A stretch of DNA of 10,779 bases from Fidelibacterota bacterium (GCA_002729175.1 PBTS01000041.1:2591-13369), one strand, 5' to 3'. Counted from the first letter of the stretch, positions 1,524-10,778 are shown. Notes: generated by a model not told the origin, from the letters alone. A program made the numbers and translations.

Positions 1524-2606
1524 TTAATAGAATATTCCTGTGACTTTTGTTGAATAACCACCGACTACACATTCCTTCCAGGAAGTTGAGGGGGAAATGT
1601 TTCCGCATGAGAGGCTGTGGGCGCGGTCTGAATCAGTCCAGAGTGTTTTAGCCACCCATTTCCCGTTTTTCAAAGAAATCATAATGACATTTTTCGAGTA
1701 GCCGAAGATGACCACTTCATTGCCAGGCAAGTTAGGCTGGATGTTGTCTACTGCTACACCTCGCAGTCCGTCGTTATCTCTGAATATTTCTTCAGAACTC
1801 CAGACCCCTTCTTCCTGTTTCAACAAATATGTACCCCCTTCATCACCCACAATAACAACCTCAGGTCCCGGGATATTTCCAAGGATTTCACCCGCTGCAA
1901 CCCGCCCCAGTGCCTCTGAGGATTCGTTGATTATCTTGGTCTTCCAATTACCGTTTTCTACATATACCTGTATGACTTTACCTGAGGTACCGACCACAAG
2001 TGCTTCCAGTCCCGGGTGAGTCCCGTCAAAATCTCCAATAACTGTATCCCTCAGACGGCCTGTGTCTTTGAGAAGAAGAGAGGATTCCCAGTCCTCATCT
2101 TTAAAAAGAACAAAGAGATTCCCATCCTCATCCACAGCCACCACTTCCTGAGAGGAATAGGCTGCATTGAGTTCTGCTACTGAGAGGCCATGAATGGAAC
2201 CTCCTTTGTCAAATATTGTCTGGTGTTTCTTGGTATCAAACTGGATTAATTCCACATGGCCTTTCTCACCTCCGACTATGATCTCTCTGCCCGGATGGGC
2301 GGCATCCAATTCACCGACGGCCGCTCCTGTAAGAGATTTAGTGTCAACCCAGAGAATATCGTTTGCCCACTGACCAGCGGACTCATATATATAGACCACT
2401 TCACCATTTGAAGCTACAGAAATGATTTCGTCTCCGCTATGCTCGGGATCGATATCGGCAACGATGACTCTCTGGATCTTTTCTTCACTCTCCCAAAGGG
2501 TCTTGGCTTTCCAGTTTTGTGGCGCCTCCTGTCTCTGTGTCTGTATTTGTGGGACGCAGGATGCCACAAACAGGGTGAATATCAATAGCGGCAGCAGTTT
2601 TTTCAT
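1524..2606 (-). CDS. FG-GAP/VCBS-like repeat beta-propeller lipoprotein (7 repeats)
   Basis: Lipobox VASC (Cys17) and SD-like GAAGGA just upstream. Seven repeats of about 45-48 aa: VADIDPEHSGDEII, VGELDAAHPGREII, VAELNAAYSSQEVV, IGDFDGTHPGLEAL, AGEILGNIPGPEVV, VDNIQPNLPGNEVV, CGNISPSTSWKECV. Confidence 0.8.
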   Translation of the reverse strand: MKKLLPLLIFTLFVASCVPQIQTQRQEAPQNWKAKTLWESEEKIQRVIVADIDPEHSGDEIISVASNGEVVYIYESAGQWANDILWVDTKSLTGAAVGELDAAHPGREIIVGGEKGHVELIQFDTKKHQTIFDKGGSIHGLSVAELNAAYSSQEVVAVDEDGNLFVLFKDEDWESSLLLKDTGRLRDTVIGDFDGTHPGLEALVVGTSGKVIQVYVENGNWKTKIINESSEALGRVAAGEILGNIPGPEVVIVGDEGGTYLLKQEEGVWSSEEIFRDNDGLRGVAVDNIQPNLPGNEVVIFGYSKNVIMISLKNGKWVAKTLWTDSDRAHSLSCGNISPSTSWKECVVGGYSTKVTGIFY

Positions 2607-2629: not shown

Positions 2630-3307
2630 TCACGATGTGGGTGCTTCTTTCATCCCGCTGTGTTTCTTTTCTTCTTTGATGTCTTTCATTTCTTCTATAC
2701 GCAGTACCACATTGCCTGTAGGATCGGGACAGAGCACGTGTGAGTCCTCCTTCATCCAGTCGCCGTCCTCGAGGGCGCGCTGCTTGGCCGGAAGAAGCGG
2801 CAGGGCGGCCTGCAGGGCGTAGAGACAGAAGTGACAGCCCTCCGGGATGTAGAGCCGTCCGCTGCGCAATTGAAAAGAATCTCCGGGCTCCATTCGGGAT
2901 GTACAATGTCCCTTGAACGATTCCACCTCGATGCGCAGAGTTTTCAGACCCTCTTCTTCGGAGGGGATGCTGTTGATTGTCTTCGGCGCCTGATGTTCCG
3001 CCTCTTCTCGATCATTCCTATCGACGTTTCCGGTCCGTTCGATCTTAAAGATCACGCGGCCCTTAGGGTCGGGACACTGGGCGTGATGCACCCGCCACAT
3101 CCAGTCTTCATCCTGTTCTTCAGTGATTTCACGTTCTTTCGGAGTGATCAACGGCATCAAGCTCTGCAGGGCCCACAGGCATATGTAGCCGCCCTCGGGG
3201 ATCTGGATGTCGCCGTCGCTCACCGTGAAATAGTCGCCCGACTTCATGGCAGGTTCTGCCGTACACTCGCCCATCACCTTTTTAACGGTCACCTTCAGTT
3301 CATACAT
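2630..3307 (-). CDS. TIGR04076-like protein with two tandem Cys-rich domains
   Basis: Two copies of the pattern L.V.V....G.C...GD.F...IPEG...CLxAL...P...K.R...DWM...CPDP.G.V...IE, each with three conserved Cys. A good SD (AAGGAG) precedes the ATG at 3307. Confidence 0.8.
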   Translation of the reverse strand: MYELKVTVKKVMGECTAEPAMKSGDYFTVSDGDIQIPEGGYICLWALQSLMPLITPKEREITEEQDEDWMWRVHHAQCPDPKGRVIFKIERTGNVDRNDREEAEHQAPKTINSIPSEEEGLKTLRIEVESFKGHCTSRMEPGDSFQLRSGRLYIPEGCHFCLYALQAALPLLPAKQRALEDGDWMKEDSHVLCPDPTGNVVLRIEEMKDIKEEKKHSGMKEAPTS

Positions 3308-3733: not shown

Positions 3734-4495
3734 ATGTTCGATATTATTCATAGCTATTCACTGCAACTGCCAGAATTATCACTGATCTTTCTTAGCGCTG
3801 TGGCTATTGGCATGGCAAAGACAGGTTTGGGCGGTTTCGGTATGCTGACGGTAGCGATCATGGCGGACATTTTCGGGGCTAAGCCTTCAACAGGTATTGT
3901 CCTTATTCTTCTGATATTTGCTGATTTCTTTGGTGTCTGGTTTTATCACAGGCATGCCAATATAAAAATGATCCTGAAACTTTCGCCCAGTACGATTTTT
4001 GGTATATTGCTGGGGATTGTCATTGGAGACAGAATCAGTGATGTTCAGTTCACGGTTCTGTTGGCGGGAATACTGATCCTCAGTGCGTTGGTCATGGGGG
4101 CAAACCTAAACAATAATCTAAAAGTCAAACCGAGCTTTTCACTCTCATTTATCACTGGTTCTGTAGCAGGCATTTCAACAATGATCGGCAATTCGGCCGG
4201 ACCTATCATGTCTATCTACTTTCTTGCTATGGGTTTAAAGAAAAACAGTTTCATCGGCACCGGCGCCTGGTTTTTCCTGTTTGTGAATCTGTTCAAACTC
4301 CCTTTTCACATATTCATCTGGGAGACTATCAATGTAAAAACTTTCTTGTTTGATCTGGTCCTTATTCCTGCCATTGTTCTTGGTGCCTTTGCTGGGGTCT
4401 GGATCGTAAAAAAAATCCCCGAAAAGCCGTACCGTGTGATCATTATCGTCTCAGTGGTGTTGGGCGCTCTTCAAATGAGCCTGAAGAGTTTTTAG
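3734..4495 (+). CDS. Sulfite exporter TauE/SafE (TSUP/DUF81) family membrane protein
   Basis: 253 aa, highly hydrophobic with about 8 TM segments. Motifs GMAKTGLGGFG and GISTMIGNSAGPIMSIY...FIGTGAWFFLFVNLFKLPF are typical of this family. Confidence 0.88.
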   Translation: MFDIIHSYSLQLPELSLIFLSAVAIGMAKTGLGGFGMLTVAIMADIFGAKPSTGIVLILLIFADFFGVWFYHRHANIKMILKLSPSTIFGILLGIVIGDRISDVQFTVLLAGILILSALVMGANLNNNLKVKPSFSLSFITGSVAGISTMIGNSAGPIMSIYFLAMGLKKNSFIGTGAWFFLFVNLFKLPFHIFIWETINVKTFLFDLVLIPAIVLGAFAGVWIVKKIPEKPYRVIIIVSVVLGALQMSLKSF

Positions 4496-4602: not shown

Positions 4603-5658
4603 ATGCGTGTTTTGCTTAAGCTTGTTCTCTTTTTTCCCATAATTTCAGGACAGCAATTGTCAACGCCTAAAATTAAATATGCACCAAGGTCCTACGTTTG
4701 TTATAAAGTATCTGCACCGATTGTGGTCGATGGAAAAATCAATGACGTGTCATGGCAAAAAGCTAACTGGTCAGAATCATTCGTTGATATTGAAGGAGAT
4801 CTAAAACCAAATCCATTTTTCGATACTAAAGTCAAAATGTTATGGGATGAGAATTATTTCTATTTTGGTGCACAAATGGAAGAGCCCCATGTATGGGCGA
4901 CCCTGAAAGACAGGGATGCCATTATTTATAAGGATAATGATTTTGAAATATTCCTAGATCCCGATGGTGATACGCACCACTACTATGAACTGGAAGTCAA
5001 TGCTTTGGAAACAGAGTGGGATCTGCTCTTATTAAAACCTTATCGTGACCAAGCGAAAGTTGCTGTGGATTCCTGGGATATCCCGGGCCTTATCACAAAG
5101 GTTTATGTGGATGGAACTATAAATAACCCATCAGATAAAGATCGAGGTTGGATTGTAGAGATCGCCATCCCTTGGAAAGCACTGGAGGAGTGCGCTCCAA
5201 ATTTCCATCCCCAAGAAGGTGAACAATGGAAGGTCAATTTTTCCCGAGTTCATTGGGAAACCAACATTGAAAATGGCCAATACCTCAAAACTAAACTACC
5301 TGCGTACAATTGGGTCTGGTCACCCCAAGGAATTATTGCCATGCATTATCCAGAAATGTGGGGATTGGTGCAATTTACAGAAACGATTGTGGGGGAAGAA
5401 CTGGTAAAAATTCAGGCAAATGAACTGGATCAGATCAAATGGGCACTCCGCCAATTATATTACCGCGAGAGAAGCCACTTTGAAAGCTATGGTGATTTCA
5501 CAACTTCATTAAAAAAATTAGAGCTCATTGAAACACCCGTTGCTGATGTCCCCTGGCCGCCACAATTATCTTTAACACCTTCCGGCTGGGAAGCATTCAT
5601 TAAAAAGGACGGACAGAAAGTCTTTATCCGAAAAGACGGAAAAGTATGGTTAGAATGA
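4603..5658 (+). CDS. Carbohydrate-binding family 9-like (CBM9/DOMON-like) protein, probably exported
   Basis: Motifs PIVVDGKINDVSW, TKVKMLWDENYFY, DNDFEIFLDPDGD...YYELEVNAL, WIVEIAIPW, WKVNFSR and MHYPEMWG. Short hydrophobic N-terminus, with SD AAGGA upstream. Confidence 0.88.
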   Translation: MRVLLKLVLFFPIISGQQLSTPKIKYAPRSYVCYKVSAPIVVDGKINDVSWQKANWSESFVDIEGDLKPNPFFDTKVKMLWDENYFYFGAQMEEPHVWATLKDRDAIIYKDNDFEIFLDPDGDTHHYYELEVNALETEWDLLLLKPYRDQAKVAVDSWDIPGLITKVYVDGTINNPSDKDRGWIVEIAIPWKALEECAPNFHPQEGEQWKVNFSRVHWETNIENGQYLKTKLPAYNWVWSPQGIIAMHYPEMWGLVQFTETIVGEELVKIQANELDQIKWALRQLYYRERSHFESYGDFTTSLKKLELIETPVADVPWPPQLSLTPSGWEAFIKKDGQKVFIRKDGKVWLE

Positions 5659-5701
5659 ATTTATCTGTATTGACTGGCTAATTGTTTTGGACTTCCAACA
5701 A

Positions 5702-7408
5702 TTATCCACCTGCAATAGCGAACATTAATCCAACTAATATTGCAACAAAAATCCAACTGACGATAAATCCAATAATGGATATTTTTGAAGGTCTTAATAT
5801 TTCCAAATTATTGGTGGAAAATAGTTTTTTGGCTTTTGAAACAGTAACATTTTCTGGAATTGTACAAGGTTTACTAATGAAAGATTCATTGGCTAATACA
5901 GGTGTTCGAGCCAAAGCATAAAAATTATCCAGCTTTTGTTTCTCAACAGGCTGAGTGAACAAACTGACAGCTATACCGGTACAGACTCCTGTGATTAAAT
6001 AAAATATCATTTGCCAGGGAAGATAGATTTCAGCTCCTGTAGCTTTTTCTACAACAAATCGGGCATTGTCAGCAATGGGTAATGATCCGATTAATGAAAT
6101 AAATGTGGGCAGGGTTGTTATCCACCACATAAAAAATGCGGAAAAGGTCGCAGCCCAGGCACCTGCAACCGTTGCTCTGCGCCAAAATAGGCCGAGCCAA
6201 AAAACGATTCCCATCATAGGTGAAATCTTCCAAAATATTTCTAATCCTTTCACAACACCAGGCAGCCAGAAGGCAAAACTAACTCCACCCGCAACGATTA
6301 TTAATGATGCGATGCGACCAATCTGAATATAATGTTTAGATGATTTTTTTGGCATGAAGGGACGATAAATATTTTCAGTAAAAAGCGCTGAAGATGCGAT
6401 CATGAAAGAATCACACGAACTCATAACTGATGCCAATAATGATGCCAGAAAAATTCCTAAAAGTCCCGGCATGATTTGTGGTAAAAAGTCGCGAGCCATT
6501 AAACCATACACTTTATCGGGATCAATGTTGTCTCCGATCAGATAAGCTACCGCTGCCAAGCCGGTCAGGCTCCAGGCCACAGTGCAAAAACGTTTGATAA
6601 AATTCCCGCATGTAACTCCAATCCGACCATCCATTTCAGTTTTGCCCGCGGCACAGTTTCCCATTGTGTGTGGTTGCGTTACCCACCCAACCAATCCATT
6701 GATGGAAATAACGACAATGTAGAAAATACCAATTTCTTCAGGAGCGATAAGTGAAAACATATTCGGATCAGTAATGGTTCGATGCATTCCTTCTAAGCCA
6801 CCTACCGCACTTAAAACAAATGGCAAAAGAAAAAACGAAAAAATAATCGTTAGAATCCCTTGGATAAAATCAGTGACAATTGCCGCGGTCAACCCTCCTG
6901 CTATACCATATATTAGAAAAAGGATTGTCATGATAACAATAATGGTTGAGGAGGATATTGTCTCTCCAAATGTTGCTGAAATAATAGCACTGGATCCCTT
7001 CAGAATGAGACCAATATTCACCATCAGATTTACCATGCCTATGAACGCATATAACATCCCCACACTTTGATCGTATCTTGCAACGAAAACATCCGCCATG
7101 GTTATAGCACGAAATCGCCGAAGTAACGGTGCGATCAACCAGTAGAAGGGTGTAACAAAAAGCCATAACCATTGATACCAAATTCCTGATAAACCACTAC
7201 TGAATGTTTTGGATGCAACACCAACAGCCTGATCTGAATGAGTTCCTGTTCCAAAGCCATGCATCATTAAAGAAAATTTTCCAAATTTCCGTGGCATAAA
7301 AAAATCATCAACTGTCTTGATCTTTTTCGAAGTCCAGATACCAATGACAGTAATCCCCAAAAAATAAAGGATCAATACTATAAAGTCAGTTATATGTAAT
7401 CCAGACAA
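5702..7408 (-). CDS. Sodium:solute symporter (SSS/SLC5-like) family transporter
   Basis: 568 aa polytopic membrane protein with N-terminal DFIVLILYFLGITVIGIW and SSS motifs YGIAGGLTAAIVTDFIQG and GLLGIFLASLLASVMSS. The start codon is TTG. Confidence 0.93.
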   Translation of the reverse strand: MSGLHITDFIVLILYFLGITVIGIWTSKKIKTVDDFFMPRKFGKFSLMMHGFGTGTHSDQAVGVASKTFSSGLSGIWYQWLWLFVTPFYWLIAPLLRRFRAITMADVFVARYDQSVGMLYAFIGMVNLMVNIGLILKGSSAIISATFGETISSSTIIVIMTILFLIYGIAGGLTAAIVTDFIQGILTIIFSFFLLPFVLSAVGGLEGMHRTITDPNMFSLIAPEEIGIFYIVVISINGLVGWVTQPHTMGNCAAGKTEMDGRIGVTCGNFIKRFCTVAWSLTGLAAVAYLIGDNIDPDKVYGLMARDFLPQIMPGLLGIFLASLLASVMSSCDSFMIASSALFTENIYRPFMPKKSSKHYIQIGRIASLIIVAGGVSFAFWLPGVVKGLEIFWKISPMMGIVFWLGLFWRRATVAGAWAATFSAFFMWWITTLPTFISLIGSLPIADNARFVVEKATGAEIYLPWQMIFYLITGVCTGIAVSLFTQPVEKQKLDNFYALARTPVLANESFISKPCTIPENVTVSKAKKLFSTNNLEILRPSKISIIGFIVSWIFVAILVGLMFAIAGG

Positions 7409-7414
7409 TTACTA

Positions 7415-8191
7415 CTACAGGAGTAAAGATTTAATAATTTCGTCAGCCTCTTTATATGACTCCATGTCTCCAATATCTAAACGGCCTTTATCAGAAAAAA
7501 ATGCATTTACTGTTTCCACTTGGCACAAATAGTCAACAAAATTACCCATTTCATTGTTTGCTCCTTCATTACTCAAATATTTTGTTAATTGGTGTTTAGC
7601 AGTCGATTTCAGGAAGTACAAGAGGGGACAAAATTGATTCGATGGTGGGTTGGTTGGTTTTTCGTATATACGTAAAACCTGATTCTCTTCAGAGAGCAAT
7701 AAGACACCTGTGCGGCGAAGACGCTCTTTATCCTCATCCATTAATGCCATAACAAAATGATCTTTCTTATTCAAAAATGATAACCAATACTCTTTTAACC
7801 TAAAAAGAGGGATGTTATCTCCCCCTACTACAAGAACTTCGGAGAAATGGGAAGTCTGTTGAAAAACAAAATCCAAATCCTTAGCTACTCCTAACCGGTT
7901 ATCATTAGATGTTGATCCATCATTTATAAGATGGATGGATTTGCCCATTTTCTTCATTGGAGTATCCCAATTCGTTTCCCATTCAATGAAGTGTTTAACA
8001 AACCGATCATTGGTTACTATATAAATATCATTTATTTCTTGCAGACTCATTATCTCTTCTATTAAATAATCTAAAGCCGGCTTACCTCCCACGGGGAGCA
8101 AAGGCTTAGGTCGATTTTTTGTTAGTGGATACATCCGTGTGCCATATCCCGCACATAAAATGACAGCGAATCTATTCTTTTTAAGACTCAC
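7415..8191 (-). CDS. Sugar-1-phosphate nucleotidyltransferase (NTP_transferase family)
   Basis: Signature AVILCAGYGTRMYPLT...PKPLLPVGGKP, plus GGDN, YEKP and C-terminal LDIG. The likely start is GTG at 8191, overlapping the kinase stop codon (TAGTG), rather than 8236. Confidence 0.92.
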   Translation of the reverse strand: MSLKKNRFAVILCAGYGTRMYPLTKNRPKPLLPVGGKPALDYLIEEIMSLQEINDIYIVTNDRFVKHFIEWETNWDTPMKKMGKSIHLINDGSTSNDNRLGVAKDLDFVFQQTSHFSEVLVVGGDNIPLFRLKEYWLSFLNKKDHFVMALMDEDKERLRRTGVLLLSEENQVLRIYEKPTNPPSNQFCPLLYFLKSTAKHQLTKYLSNEGANNEMGNFVDYLCQVETVNAFFSDKGRLDIGDMESYKEADEIIKSLLL

Positions 8192-9789
8192 TATTTGAGA
8201 GTTCTCAATACAGACGCACCTGAAATTGGATAACAAATGTGTGCATCAAATGGAATGTTTTGAGGTTGATAATACTGATCCCGTAGTTCATGAAGGACAT
8301 GTTCTGCACAATTATCTTTTGCCAAAATGGTCATATTCCCTCCCATACCAGCTCCGGCAAGTTGGGCGCCAACCGTCCCCGTGACACGATTAGCAATATC
8401 TACCATTTGGTCTATTTCCTTTGTGCTACAGCCATAATTTCCTGGAATGGAAGTGAGGGATGTTTCATTTTCTTCCATTTCCGCAAGATGACCCATTGTT
8501 GCAGAATGGTCGAAATCAAAAAAATCGCCACGATTGTTAAATGAAAATAGCCTGTCACCATTATGACTGGTATCAATGATGTTCTTTATTTCATTAAGAT
8601 CGCCTTTTAAAAGGTATTTATGAAAAGACTCACTTCTGGCACATTCACTCAATCCAAAAAGAATTACACCAATAAGGTCGTAAGTACCGGGATCTTTATG
8701 TGTCATGAAGATATCGGTCAATAATTCTTTCTGATCATCACCCAAAATATGGGTGATCTTTTCTCTAGTTGGATAAACTGGTAAACTAGAAACAGCCTTA
8801 AAGATATTTTTTACAGGGACATTTAATCTTTGAGGTATTAAATCTCGTAAATGGTGAACATTTTTTGCCGCCCCCCACTGTTGACGTAAAATCATCATTG
8901 CCAGTTTATAACACGCAACTCGCTGGTTAAAAATATCCTTTTTACTACCCACTTTTTTTGCAGCTGTACCACTGTAAGCAATAATTACTTTCAAATTTTC
9001 AGGCATTGGTGTATTGGATGAAATATGAAGTGGGAAAAATCCGATGGTAGAGACCATCCCTTTTTCAGCGGTAATAATGGCAGCCGGATCAGCTTTCCCT
9101 CCATGAAATCCAAGAAATAATTCAGATTCACCAATCATTTCAATTAACAGATCTTTTGAGATGTGAATATTGTTAAGTGTAAGGAGTGCTTGCGAAAAAG
9201 CGACTCCAAGGGCACTGCTGGATGATAGTCCTGATCCAACGGGTATATTCCCACTGAAAATACAATCTATCCCTTTTAGTCGAACATCCGGGAAATGGAG
9301 TTGTAAGCGATAAAAAGCTGCAAGAATGTACATGCTCCAATCATCAGGTATAGACTTGTTCAAATTCTGAACTTGGCTTGATCTTACAAATGTTTCCCAA
9401 TCCGAAAATGTTGCAATATCTAGTAATGTATTGGGTTTTAATTTTCTGGCTGGGAATTGTGTGGAATTCACATTTTTTATATTAATAATATTATCTTTGC
9501 GTGGTGATGCTACGAGTAAGATTTCTTTATCAATTGCTATTGTGTTAACGTACCCGCCTTGGTGATCTATATGTCGCCCCATTAAATTCACACGAGCTGG
9601 GGCTCTTGAAATTATTATTTTTTTCTTCTCGTTATAGACTTTGATAAAGTGCTCAACCAGTTTAGTGATGGCGCTCAGTCGTTCATTATTCACGGTCAAT
9701 TGCTCTCCGTAGATATCAGCAAATTCCCGCTGGATATCACCCGCTTTAGAGTTCAACTTATTTAGGCATCGTGAAGCAGTTGTAATCAA
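8191..9789 (-). CDS. Galactokinase-like GHMP sugar kinase with an atypical sugar-binding motif
   Basis: Motif I APARVNLMGRHIDHQGG, ATP loop IPVGSGLSSSSA, putative catalytic Asp in GGKADP and motif III GAQLAGAGMGG. The TTG start is uncertain. Confidence 0.9.
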   Translation of the reverse strand: MITTASRCLNKLNSKAGDIQREFADIYGEQLTVNNERLSAITKLVEHFIKVYNEKKKIIISRAPARVNLMGRHIDHQGGYVNTIAIDKEILLVASPRKDNIINIKNVNSTQFPARKLKPNTLLDIATFSDWETFVRSSQVQNLNKSIPDDWSMYILAAFYRLQLHFPDVRLKGIDCIFSGNIPVGSGLSSSSALGVAFSQALLTLNNIHISKDLLIEMIGESELFLGFHGGKADPAAIITAEKGMVSTIGFFPLHISSNTPMPENLKVIIAYSGTAAKKVGSKKDIFNQRVACYKLAMMILRQQWGAAKNVHHLRDLIPQRLNVPVKNIFKAVSSLPVYPTREKITHILGDDQKELLTDIFMTHKDPGTYDLIGVILFGLSECARSESFHKYLLKGDLNEIKNIIDTSHNGDRLFSFNNRGDFFDFDHSATMGHLAEMEENETSLTSIPGNYGCSTKEIDQMVDIANRVTGTVGAQLAGAGMGGNMTILAKDNCAEHVLHELRDQYYQPQNIPFDAHICYPISGASVLRTLK

Positions 9790-9833
9790 TGAGTCTCGTG
9801 CCCCGCTTTGGTTTTATAAATTAAATTCCAGTC

Positions 9834-10778
9834 TTACAGATTATAATCATCTTTCCAATTCAAAACGGAGCTGTTTTCAATAGCATCCAGCGACATTTGT
9901 ACCATGATGGAAGCCTGAGCCCCTGTCAATTCATTGGAAATTGGCTTTGTATTATTGATGACGCTATCTCTGAAATCGATTATTGCCTGAAGTGTTGGAT
10001 CTATATGGTCAATCTCAATTGGATATCCTTTCGCTTCATCCCATTTTACGGATGCTCCCGTCACGCCATCTATAATACCCTTTTCCGGATCTTTCTTTAT
10101 TTCCGGATAAAACCAAGCTTCCCTATAGTCAAGTGTAATTGTACCCTCTTTACCTAATACTTTTATTTGGTAGTCCCCAAGAGCATTCGTTGTCAGAGAG
10201 GTAAATTTTGCTTTAACACCAGATGGGTATTCAAAAATGATGTGCACGTTGTCATAGGTTTCTCTGCCATCCTTCCAATAGTCTATGCCACCGGTTCCCA
10301 TAATCTTGGTGGGAGGACTTCCAAGCATCCAATTGGTAATATCCATTTGATGAGAGCATAATTCTGCAACCAACCCTCCGGAATATTCTTTATACATACG
10401 CCAGTTAATTAGGCGTTCCCATTTCGGGTCGGGCACTTCTCGTCTCCAGTCACCATTCCTGTTCCACTGACACGAGATGGCAGCAATTTCTCCAAGATCG
10501 CCTTCCTTAATCTTTTCAACTACGTGGGTATACAGCCTTGAACTGTGCCACTGATGCCCGGTCTGAAAGATTTTTCCCATAGACGAAACCTTATCTACCA
10601 CCTTTTTGGTTTCTTCTATCCCTTTTACCATTGTTTTTTCACAATACACATGCTTGCCGGCATCCAAGGCATCGATTGCCATGTGCCCATGTTCACTAAA
10701 TGGGGTTGATATGAACACACAATCTATGTCTTTATTGTCCAGTAATTTTTTATAGTCCTCGTATCCCTTTACTTTTCC
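9834..10778 (-). CDS. Gfo/Idh/MocA family NAD(P)-dependent oxidoreductase (5'-truncated by the window edge)
   Basis: The frame is open to the window end (GKVKGYEDYKKLLDNKDIDCVFISTP). Motifs AGKHVYCEK, FQTGHQ, NWRMYKEYSGGLVAELCSHQMD and GTGG are present. Confidence 0.93.
   Translation of the reverse strand, partial: GKVKGYEDYKKLLDNKDIDCVFISTPFSEHGHMAIDALDAGKHVYCEKTMVKGIEETKKVVDKVSSMGKIFQTGHQWHSSRLYTHVVEKIKEGDLGEIAAISCQWNRNGDWRREVPDPKWERLINWRMYKEYSGGLVAELCSHQMDITNWMLGSPPTKIMGTGGIDYWKDGRETYDNVHIIFEYPSGVKAKFTSLTTNALGDYQIKVLGKEGTITLDYREAWFYPEIKKDPEKGIIDGVTGASVKWDEAKGYPIEIDHIDPTLQAIIDFRDSVINNTKPISNELTGAQASIMVQMSLDAIENSSVLNWKDDYNL

Follow-up and report, generated by a model that had tools for sequence, protein, structure and literature searches.

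A candidate import-and-activation module for a sugar, possibly of N-acetylhexosamine type, in Candidatus Marinimicrobia

The window analysed here is a stretch of 10,779 nucleotides (nt) from a Fidelibacterota bacterium (contig C63:2591-13369 of genome G000; L, G and P codes are labels for the loci, genomes and proteins compared). Its minus strand carries a run of four open reading frames (ORFs) encoding a Gfo/Idh/MocA oxidoreductase, a GalK-like kinase of the GHMP family, a sugar-1-phosphate nucleotidyltransferase (NT) and a sodium:solute symporter (SSF). We propose that the last three genes (5702-9789) constitute an "import and activate" sugar salvage module. The logic of import, anomeric phosphorylation and nucleotidyl transfer is well supported. 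That the sugar is of the N-acetylhexosamine (HexNAc) type, be it neutral or acidic, appears the most likely assignment, and we give it about an even chance of being right.

Gene order and conservation of the module

The four genes are arranged as follows.

9834..>10778 (beyond the window edge), minus strand: Gfo/Idh/MocA oxidoreductase, C-terminal 314 amino acids (aa); Pfam PF01408, PF02894, PF22725
8191..9789, minus strand: putative GalK-like GHMP anomeric sugar kinase, 532 aa, TTG start; Pfam PF10509, PF00288, PF08544
7415..8191, minus strand: sugar-1-phosphate NT, 258 aa from GTG 8191; Pfam PF00483
5702..7408, minus strand: SSF symporter, 568 aa, TTG start; Pfam PF00474

Pfam and NCBIfam agreed on the family of all four genes. 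A first-pass annotation of this DNA had described a minus-strand run with a gap of 44 nt, a 1-nt overlap and a gap of 6 nt, and this spacing can be read directly from the sequence: the TAA stop of the oxidoreductase gene ends at 9834, 44 nt before the kinase TTG at 9789; the TAG stop of the kinase gene (8193-8191) shares one nucleotide with the GTG of the NT gene at 8191 (TAGTG); and the TAG stop of the NT gene ends at 7415, 6 nt before the symporter TTG at 7408. The longest NT ORF would start from an alternative TTG at 8236 (273 aa); GTG 8191 is the likely start because the orthologous NT genes begin at overlaps with the kinase gene of 1 nt (L004) or 4 nt (L005). Promoter- and terminator-like elements between 5400 and 10779 were not above the level of shuffled sequence (promoter-like, 14 vs 17.9 expected; terminator-like, 5 vs 4.1), and operon boundaries were therefore judged by spacing alone. 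The flanks of contig C63 (L001, L002) contain many ambiguous bases, with X scattered in the translations; the window itself is clean.

Conservation was evaluated in a phylum sample of 301 genomes representing 103 genera, the closest kinase homologues being named Candidatus Marinimicrobia by their sources. The kinase was present in six genomes (G000 counted) from four genera. All five kinase-orthologue genomes that could be checked (G000, L003, L004, L005 and L095) keep the order kinase-NT-SSF, with overlapping or nearly abutting genes. The kinase of L003 (G284) is 98% identical to that of the window; for L004 (G174), L005 (G172) and L095 (G191), identities to the window proteins are 53-54% (kinase), 52% (NT) and 67-75% (SSF), the NT orthologues of L004 and L005 standing at the equivalent position. 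Orthologues of the symporter (67-98% identity) were found in the sample only in the same five genomes. Given that the kinase and symporter orthologues occupy the same genomes and that their order is kept, the trio is an accessory trait of rare occurrence that moves as a set of three genes. The neighbourhood conservation that the first-pass annotation had named as a check thus holds in five Marinimicrobia genomes, and since linkage of the trio and of kinase to NT recurs elsewhere, the converse outcome that would have spoken against it, genes unlinked in other genomes, did not arise.

No GalT or GalE gene was detected among the 10 window ORFs scanned with Pfam and NCBIfam, as the first-pass annotation had noticed. 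In the genome (1.83 Mb, 93% complete, 7% contaminated), GalT was likewise not found and GalE lies on another contig, so that the run does not belong to a Leloir pathway. The earlier proposal of import, anomeric phosphorylation and nucleoside diphosphate (NDP) activation independent of GalT gains from the conservation of the trio and from the fusion or adjacency of an NT to the kinase in 78 of the 80 family loci described below.

From gene order, conservation, domain identities and the NT fusions seen in the kinase family we infer the following reaction sequence. The symporter would import a free monosaccharide with Na+; the kinase would use ATP to phosphorylate its anomeric hydroxyl; and the NT would join the sugar-1-phosphate to a nucleoside triphosphate (NTP), most likely UTP, yielding an NDP-sugar. 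This product may feed the building of the envelope or of glycans, or an epimerase may interconvert it. The sugar itself may be set free outside the cytoplasm by neighbouring glycan degraders (GH20, GH109 and DUF1080 proteins and exported Gfo dehydrogenases; GH, glycoside hydrolase family).

The symporter belongs to the SSF family (TC 2.A.21; PF00474, 127.8 bits), and scored 138.8 bits with the superfamily model TIGR00813 (below its cut-off of 184). Its best matches in the PDB are SGLT1, SGLT2 and vSGLT, SiaT being weaker, and it is presumed to bring the free sugar into the cell.

The kinase family and its nucleotidyltransferases

All three Pfam domains of the kinase scored above their cut-offs, placing the enzyme in the galactokinase-like branch of the GHMP family. 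Its best NCBIfam match was the galactokinase model TIGR00131 (151.7 bits, E 2.6e-44), the cut-off of 226.65 not being reached. Among PDB sequences it was closest to the human N-acetylgalactosamine (GalNAc) kinase GALK2 (2a2c, E 1.3e-32), galactokinases following at 1.7e-17 or weaker. The AlphaFold model (pLDDT 91.5) has a GHMP fold and in Foldseek retrieved 2a2c (E 2e-28) and 2a2d (3.5e-26) first, then yeast Gal1p and human GALK1. GALK2 is thus the best match in both sequence and fold (TM 0.84 on target), yet identity is only 27% and two of its Glu residues are replaced. A weak match to PDB entry 9ulx ("AbGHMP") was also obtained, an entry for which the literature search found no descriptive paper, and a search of the ESM Atlas returned unnamed GHMP clusters only.

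In an alignment of 24 kinase sequences (A1), G187-S192, G479-G484, D234 and R66 are conserved; the window kinase retains Arg66, the catalytic Asp234 and the ATP motifs GSGLSSS and GAGMGG (the names given to kinase and NT motifs are those that we take to apply), and Phe287 corresponds to the Phe of the GALK2 motif FNxR. The galactokinase signature GEHxDY is replaced by RVNLMGRHIDHQGG, with both Glu and Tyr exchanged. The signature Arg (Arg72) is found in 23 of the 24 aligned homologues and in every one of the 78 loci whose motif could be read, the latter count being circular in that the loci were partly retrieved by the same motif. At the second GALK2 Glu, just before the catalytic Asp, most of the family has Arg and the window kinase has His229, with Lys232 nearby. 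In galactokinases, the signature Glu is in contact with galactose at its C6 end; the literature search gave no confirmation of this. By its sub-threshold TIGR00131 score and its changed signature, the enzyme is not a canonical galactokinase.

A scan for the kinase family, with one genome per species, yielded at least 708 pattern matches and at least 478 confirmed relatives, in as many species-level genomes from many phyla. The best 80 loci, from genomes other than G000, were analysed and fell into the following groups.

71 of 80 loci: NT domain at the N terminus and kinase at the C terminus of one longer ORF
2 of 80: cut by the contig end, with NT remnants
1 of 80 (L062): split or frameshifted fusion
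1 of 80 (L014): separate NT immediately upstream
3 of 80: Marinimicrobia form, with the PF00483 NT downstream
1 of 80 (L009): contig-cut and not assessable
1 of 80 (L018): no NT nearby; the kinase follows a GH38 gene

The same architecture was seen among the 120 kinase homologues listed, of which 85 are 785-929 aa long; an NTP-transferase Pfam domain is present in 82 of these 85. Nine very long ORFs (937-1454 aa) showed NT and kinase domains only in Pfam. The fusions run NT then kinase, whereas the window genes run kinase then NT and, as two genes with a 1-nt overlap, do not form an Fkp-type bifunctional protein; the Fkp equivalog model scored 17 bits (cut-off 721). Source names among the 120 homologues are "hypothetical", "NTP transferase domain-containing", "galactokinase" or "galactokinase family protein" and, by transfer, "N-acetylgalactosamine kinase". 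The literature search returned no paper on this kinase family or on a natural GalK-like/GlmU-like fusion, and none on a bacterial glucurono- or galacturonokinase.

The fused NT domains differ from the window NT. In all four that were scanned, GlmU uridylyltransferase models were the best among NT families (E 1e-29 to 1e-39 over about 250 residues), and RmlA and AglF models were far weaker. That one kinase family is partnered by two different transferases argues strongly that the transferase acts on the product of the kinase. As a lead, the fused protein is the sole GlmU-like match at E 1e-20 or better in two of five other fused-gene genomes, namely G301 (L036), an Acidobacteriota chromosome, and G302 (L051), a Phycisphaerae genome. 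No MurU match above the cut-off was found in five fused-gene genomes, but this was uninformative as control genomes also gave none. Genes beside some fused homologues encode GH123, GlmS, a NagA-like amidohydrolase or UDP-GlcNAc 2-epimerase. The fusion of G301 is followed by a NagA-like gene (208.8 bits vs a cut-off of 225.65), and in L048 (Phycisphaerae) a standalone GalK-like GHMP kinase (5119-6756, 545 aa, weak PF10509) overlaps a downstream fused NT-kinase (6744-9614).

The window NT matches PF00483 over residues 24-267 (95.9 bits vs a cut-off of 21.2) and contains the motifs GYGTRMYPLT and YEKP, as expected of a PF00483 sugar-1-phosphate NT. The Pfam scan returned PF00483, PF12804 and PF01128 only, so that the protein is not of the UDPGP type of plant and eukaryotic UDP-sugar pyrophosphorylases (USP). 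Its closest NCBIfam models, Arch_glmU, RmlA_long and AglF, are all far under their cut-offs, as are the GlmU, RmlA, GalU, GlgC and MurU models (MurU, 40.5 bits vs 250). YngB and Sulfolobus ST0452 are its best PDB matches. A distant relative is P0121, a 750-aa protein from a public assembly whose PF00483 transferase is 26% identical to the window NT; the layout of P0121 resembles that of zebrafish glucuronokinase/pyrophosphorylase.

Neighbouring genes and the probable sugar

GalNAc or N-acetylglucosamine (GlcNAc) is the most likely sugar, a derivative with an anionic group being possible. The HexNAc assignment draws on GALK2 as the nearest characterised relative of the kinase, on the GlmU-like character of the fused NT domains, and on GH20 and GH109 genes nearby; an anionic group is suggested by the two Glu to Arg/His changes and by SSF paralogues beside β-glucuronidases.

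The glycan-processing neighbours vary between genomes. Further upstream in G000 are genes for a second Gfo protein with a twin-arginine (TAT) signal, a double DUF1080 protein, a GH20 protein and an M20 peptidase. DUF1080 is the 3-keto-disaccharide hydrolase family. The divergent neighbours in L004 encode three proteins, one of DUF1080-HEAT type, one of family GH109 that also has CHB_HEX_C and PA14 domains, and one of 1076 aa whose matches to GH20b (PF02838) and CBM_56 are below threshold; a DUF1080-HEAT protein also adjoins the trio in L005. Such apparently exported proteins could supply the free sugar.

The Gfo/Idh/MocA enzyme of the window had been thought to make or convert the kinase substrate, a role that its properties do not favour. 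The orthologue in L003 (398 aa, beginning MTIMKRRKFIKLGIFG) carries an export signal of twin-arginine type (RRKFIK), and in the PDB the enzyme comes closest to DgpA and to glycoside or glucuronide 3-dehydrogenases; the BT_2158_fam model scored 62.8 bits (cut-off 750). A close homologue adjoins the trio only in L003, where the kinase is 98% identical, and is absent from that position in L004 and L005; in L095 the upstream side of the trio is cut by the contig end. The Gfo gene is thus a neighbour and not a conserved part of the trio.

The genome encodes GlmS, MurA and GalE; NagA was not found in it at 93% completeness. This content is compatible with an anabolic fate of the sugar. A search for bifunctional GlmU in G000 gave no match above the cut-off, the best (62.6 bits) being an NT-only ORF.

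Several observations weigh against the proposed HexNAc salvage. None of the enzymes of the run passes an NCBIfam equivalog cut-off, so that substrate and nucleotide are deduced from distant relatives at about 27% identity. GEHIDY of GALK2 is GRHIDH in the window kinase, and GTEGGGMDQ is GFHGGKADP (GSRGGxxDH in most of the family); with such a changed signature the sugar may well be other than GalNAc, and the pocket, being more basic, speaks for an anionic group. No GlmU-like character is seen in the window NT, which resembles the fused NT domains only remotely; in P0121, its sole longer homologue, the transferase is joined to a GHMP kinase lacking the GalK signature. Two of the five genomes with SSF paralogues (G125 and G202, 48-49% identity) have these beside β-glucuronidases above the equivalog cut-off. 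The neighbourhoods are heterogeneous, the genes flanking fused homologues being mostly unrelated to sugars; the module is rare (6 of the 301 genomes); and it could feed catabolism instead of biosynthesis.

A broader reading, which we put forward tentatively and consider clearly less probable than the HexNAc assignment itself, is that GRHxDH kinases form a new, widespread bacterial class of anomeric kinases for an anionic sugar such as N-acetylmuramic acid (MurNAc), a HexNAc-uronate or glucuronate. The GlmU-type fusion would then be an unrecognised way of turning a free sugar into UDP-sugar with a single protein, and maybe the only GlmU-like uridylyltransferase of some genomes, and Marinimicrobia would have split the fusion, swapped the transferase and added a Na+ symporter to scavenge seawater organic matter.

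Five further Marinimicrobia genomes have SSF paralogues (47-49% identity), situated in loci for sugar acids or amino sugars. In G019 and G025 they adjoin NagA, an aminotransferase, a Gfo enzyme and a KDG-kinase-like gene, and in G134 a NagB-like gene and a heparinase-like lyase. The two remaining loci, in which GH31/KduI or GH88 genes also occur, contain β-glucuronidases of 574 and 604 bits (cut-off 544), and their symporters are probably uronate or glucuronide transporters.

L100:5637-9214 (G125): SSF paralogue locus with β-glucuronidase
L101:5765-9333 (G202): SSF paralogue locus with β-glucuronidase

These loci bear on a rather unlikely alternative, salvage of a uronic acid, in which the symporter would import glucuronic acid (GlcA) or galacturonic acid (GalA), the kinase would form the uronate-1-phosphate and the NT the UDP-uronate, as in plants and zebrafish. 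Arg72 in place of the signature Glu, and Arg in the family (His229 and Lys232 here) at the second GALK2 Glu, would suit such a substrate, as would the β-glucuronidases, GH88 or KduI near the symporters of G125 and G202. The kinase partner of the NT in P0121 moreover has an N-terminal motif that we take to be glucuronokinase-like. A eukaryotic precedent for an NT-GlcA-kinase fusion exists (PMC3938481). Against uronate salvage, the window kinase has the GalK signature domain and is nearest to a GalNAc kinase, not to the glucuronokinase type, the fused NT domains are GlmU-like, and the trio has GH20 and GH109 neighbours and no uronate enzymes. A de novo route to UDP-uronate probably exists as well, since an NDP-sugar dehydrogenase fragment is present at a contig end in G000. 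Of the acidic sugar proposed in the first-pass annotation, the uronic acid is therefore disfavoured by the GalNAc kinase match, the GlmU-like fused NTs and GH20/GH109, while an anionic substituent stands as possible on account of Arg72, His229/Lys232 and the SSF paralogues.

In another reading, a GHMP/GlmU-type analogue of AmgK-MurU would salvage an anionic amino sugar, which could be a HexNAc-uronic acid, a HexNAc sulfate or MurNAc taken from peptidoglycan debris. This would reconcile the HexNAc-type evidence with the basic substitutions in the pocket, but we regard it as doubtful. Many of the fused proteins are encoded amid housekeeping or envelope genes (GlmS, an L,D-transpeptidase with a peptidoglycan-binding domain, a polysaccharide deacetylase, a NagA-like gene with an MFS transporter), and import, anomeric phosphorylation and uridylylation make up an established bacterial MurNAc route (PMC7670621). 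The MurU model, however, is far below its cut-off on the window NT, MurA is present in the genome, which argues against MurNAc auxotrophy, and nothing direct singles out one anionic amino sugar.

The same reactions might also run in a catabolic, Leloir-like or Isselbacher-type direction, with GalE epimerising the NDP-sugar on its way to central metabolism as in the NahK pathway of Bifidobacterium. The adjacent glycan-degrading genes and the presence of GalE would fit, and the genome, in which NagA was not found, would require HexNAc carbon to enter by a different route. We nevertheless consider this improbable: no gene was identified for the return of UDP-HexNAc to central metabolism, several fused homologues lie in polysaccharide biosynthesis clusters (Wzx, Wzy, Wzz, GT4, UDP-GlcNAc 2-epimerase), and activation by the NT spends one NTP per sugar. 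That the kinase is an ordinary galactokinase acting on neutral galactose, with transferase and transporter adjacent by chance, is very improbable despite TIGR00131 being its best NCBIfam match (E 2.6e-44), given the score below the cut-off (151.7 vs 226.65 bits), the exchanged Glu and Tyr of GEHxDY, the missing GalT, an adjacency kept at 53% kinase identity and the NT fusions elsewhere in the family.

The remaining window genes are listed here together with those found after the symporter in other lineages.

385-1374 and 1524-2606, minus strand: predicted lipoproteins, one with two glyoxalase/VOC domains, the other weakly β-propeller lectin-like
2630-3307, minus strand: 225-aa protein in which the TIGR04076 family domain occurs twice (E 1.4e-39), without a Pfam match
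3734-4495, plus strand: TauE/SafE-type anion exporter, convergent to the symporter gene
4603-5658, plus strand: secreted CBM9-like protein, convergent to the symporter gene
L004:12035-17167, L005:7097-12229 and L095:3336-7448: giant repeat protein, after the symporter gene

The giant proteins of these three Marinimicrobia lineages (1370-1710 aa) have cadherin-like/Big_9 repeats and, in L004 and L005, end in a Por_Secre_tail sorting domain of the type IX secretion system (T9SS); at this place the window has the opposite-strand CBM9-like gene. Of the TauE/SafE and CBM9-like genes, only the latter is also present in L003. Sulfoquinovose was considered as the sugar on account of the TauE/SafE gene and was dropped, as this gene is not beside the trio in L003, L004 or L005.

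Knowing which sugar the kinase uses would define what a large family does. It might also reveal how streamlined marine heterotrophs draw on dissolved organic matter to spare the cost of amino-sugar or uronate synthesis, and the natural NT-kinase fusions may serve as one-pot biocatalysts for UDP-sugars.

Comparison with known salvage systems

In plants and animals, the direct salvage of free sugars to nucleotide sugars is amply described; in bacteria, to our knowledge, direct salvage is documented only for a few cases, namely Fkp, AmgK-MurU and NahK. The proposed HexNAc module is most readily compared with human GalNAc salvage by GALK2 and UDP-HexNAc pyrophosphorylase, with which it shares a long GalK-like GHMP fold and the order of anomeric kinase, then pyrophosphorylase. 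It differs in that the window kinase is 27% identical and has two Glu residues of the sugar motifs changed to Arg/His, and in that the bacterial side has a PF00483 or GlmU-type transferase, with a Na+ symporter in the operon; the human pyrophosphorylase is of the eukaryotic UDPGP type.

C1 phosphorylation followed by uridylylation is likewise common to the proposed module and to AmgK-MurU. AmgK is not known to be a GHMP kinase, and the 40.5 bits of the window NT compare with a MurU cut-off of 250. Pseudomonas and Tannerella use the AmgK-MurU route to sidestep de novo synthesis, phosphorylating C1 of an amino sugar that has been imported or recycled and then uridylylating the product (PMC7670621). 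Bacteroides Fkp consists of an N-terminal NT and a C-terminal GHMP kinase, the order seen in the fused homologues, but its kinase subfamily and NT type are different and the window has separate genes, kinase then NT.

The zebrafish glucuronokinase/UDP-GlcA pyrophosphorylase is an NT-GlcA-kinase fusion with a bacterial PF00483-like NT domain (PMC3938481). Together with plant glucurono- or galacturonokinase and USP it shares with the proposed module the salvage by a sugar-1-kinase and a pyrophosphorylase, P0121 providing a distant link to the window NT; its glucuronokinase domain (357 aa), however, is without the GalK signature domain that the window kinase has.

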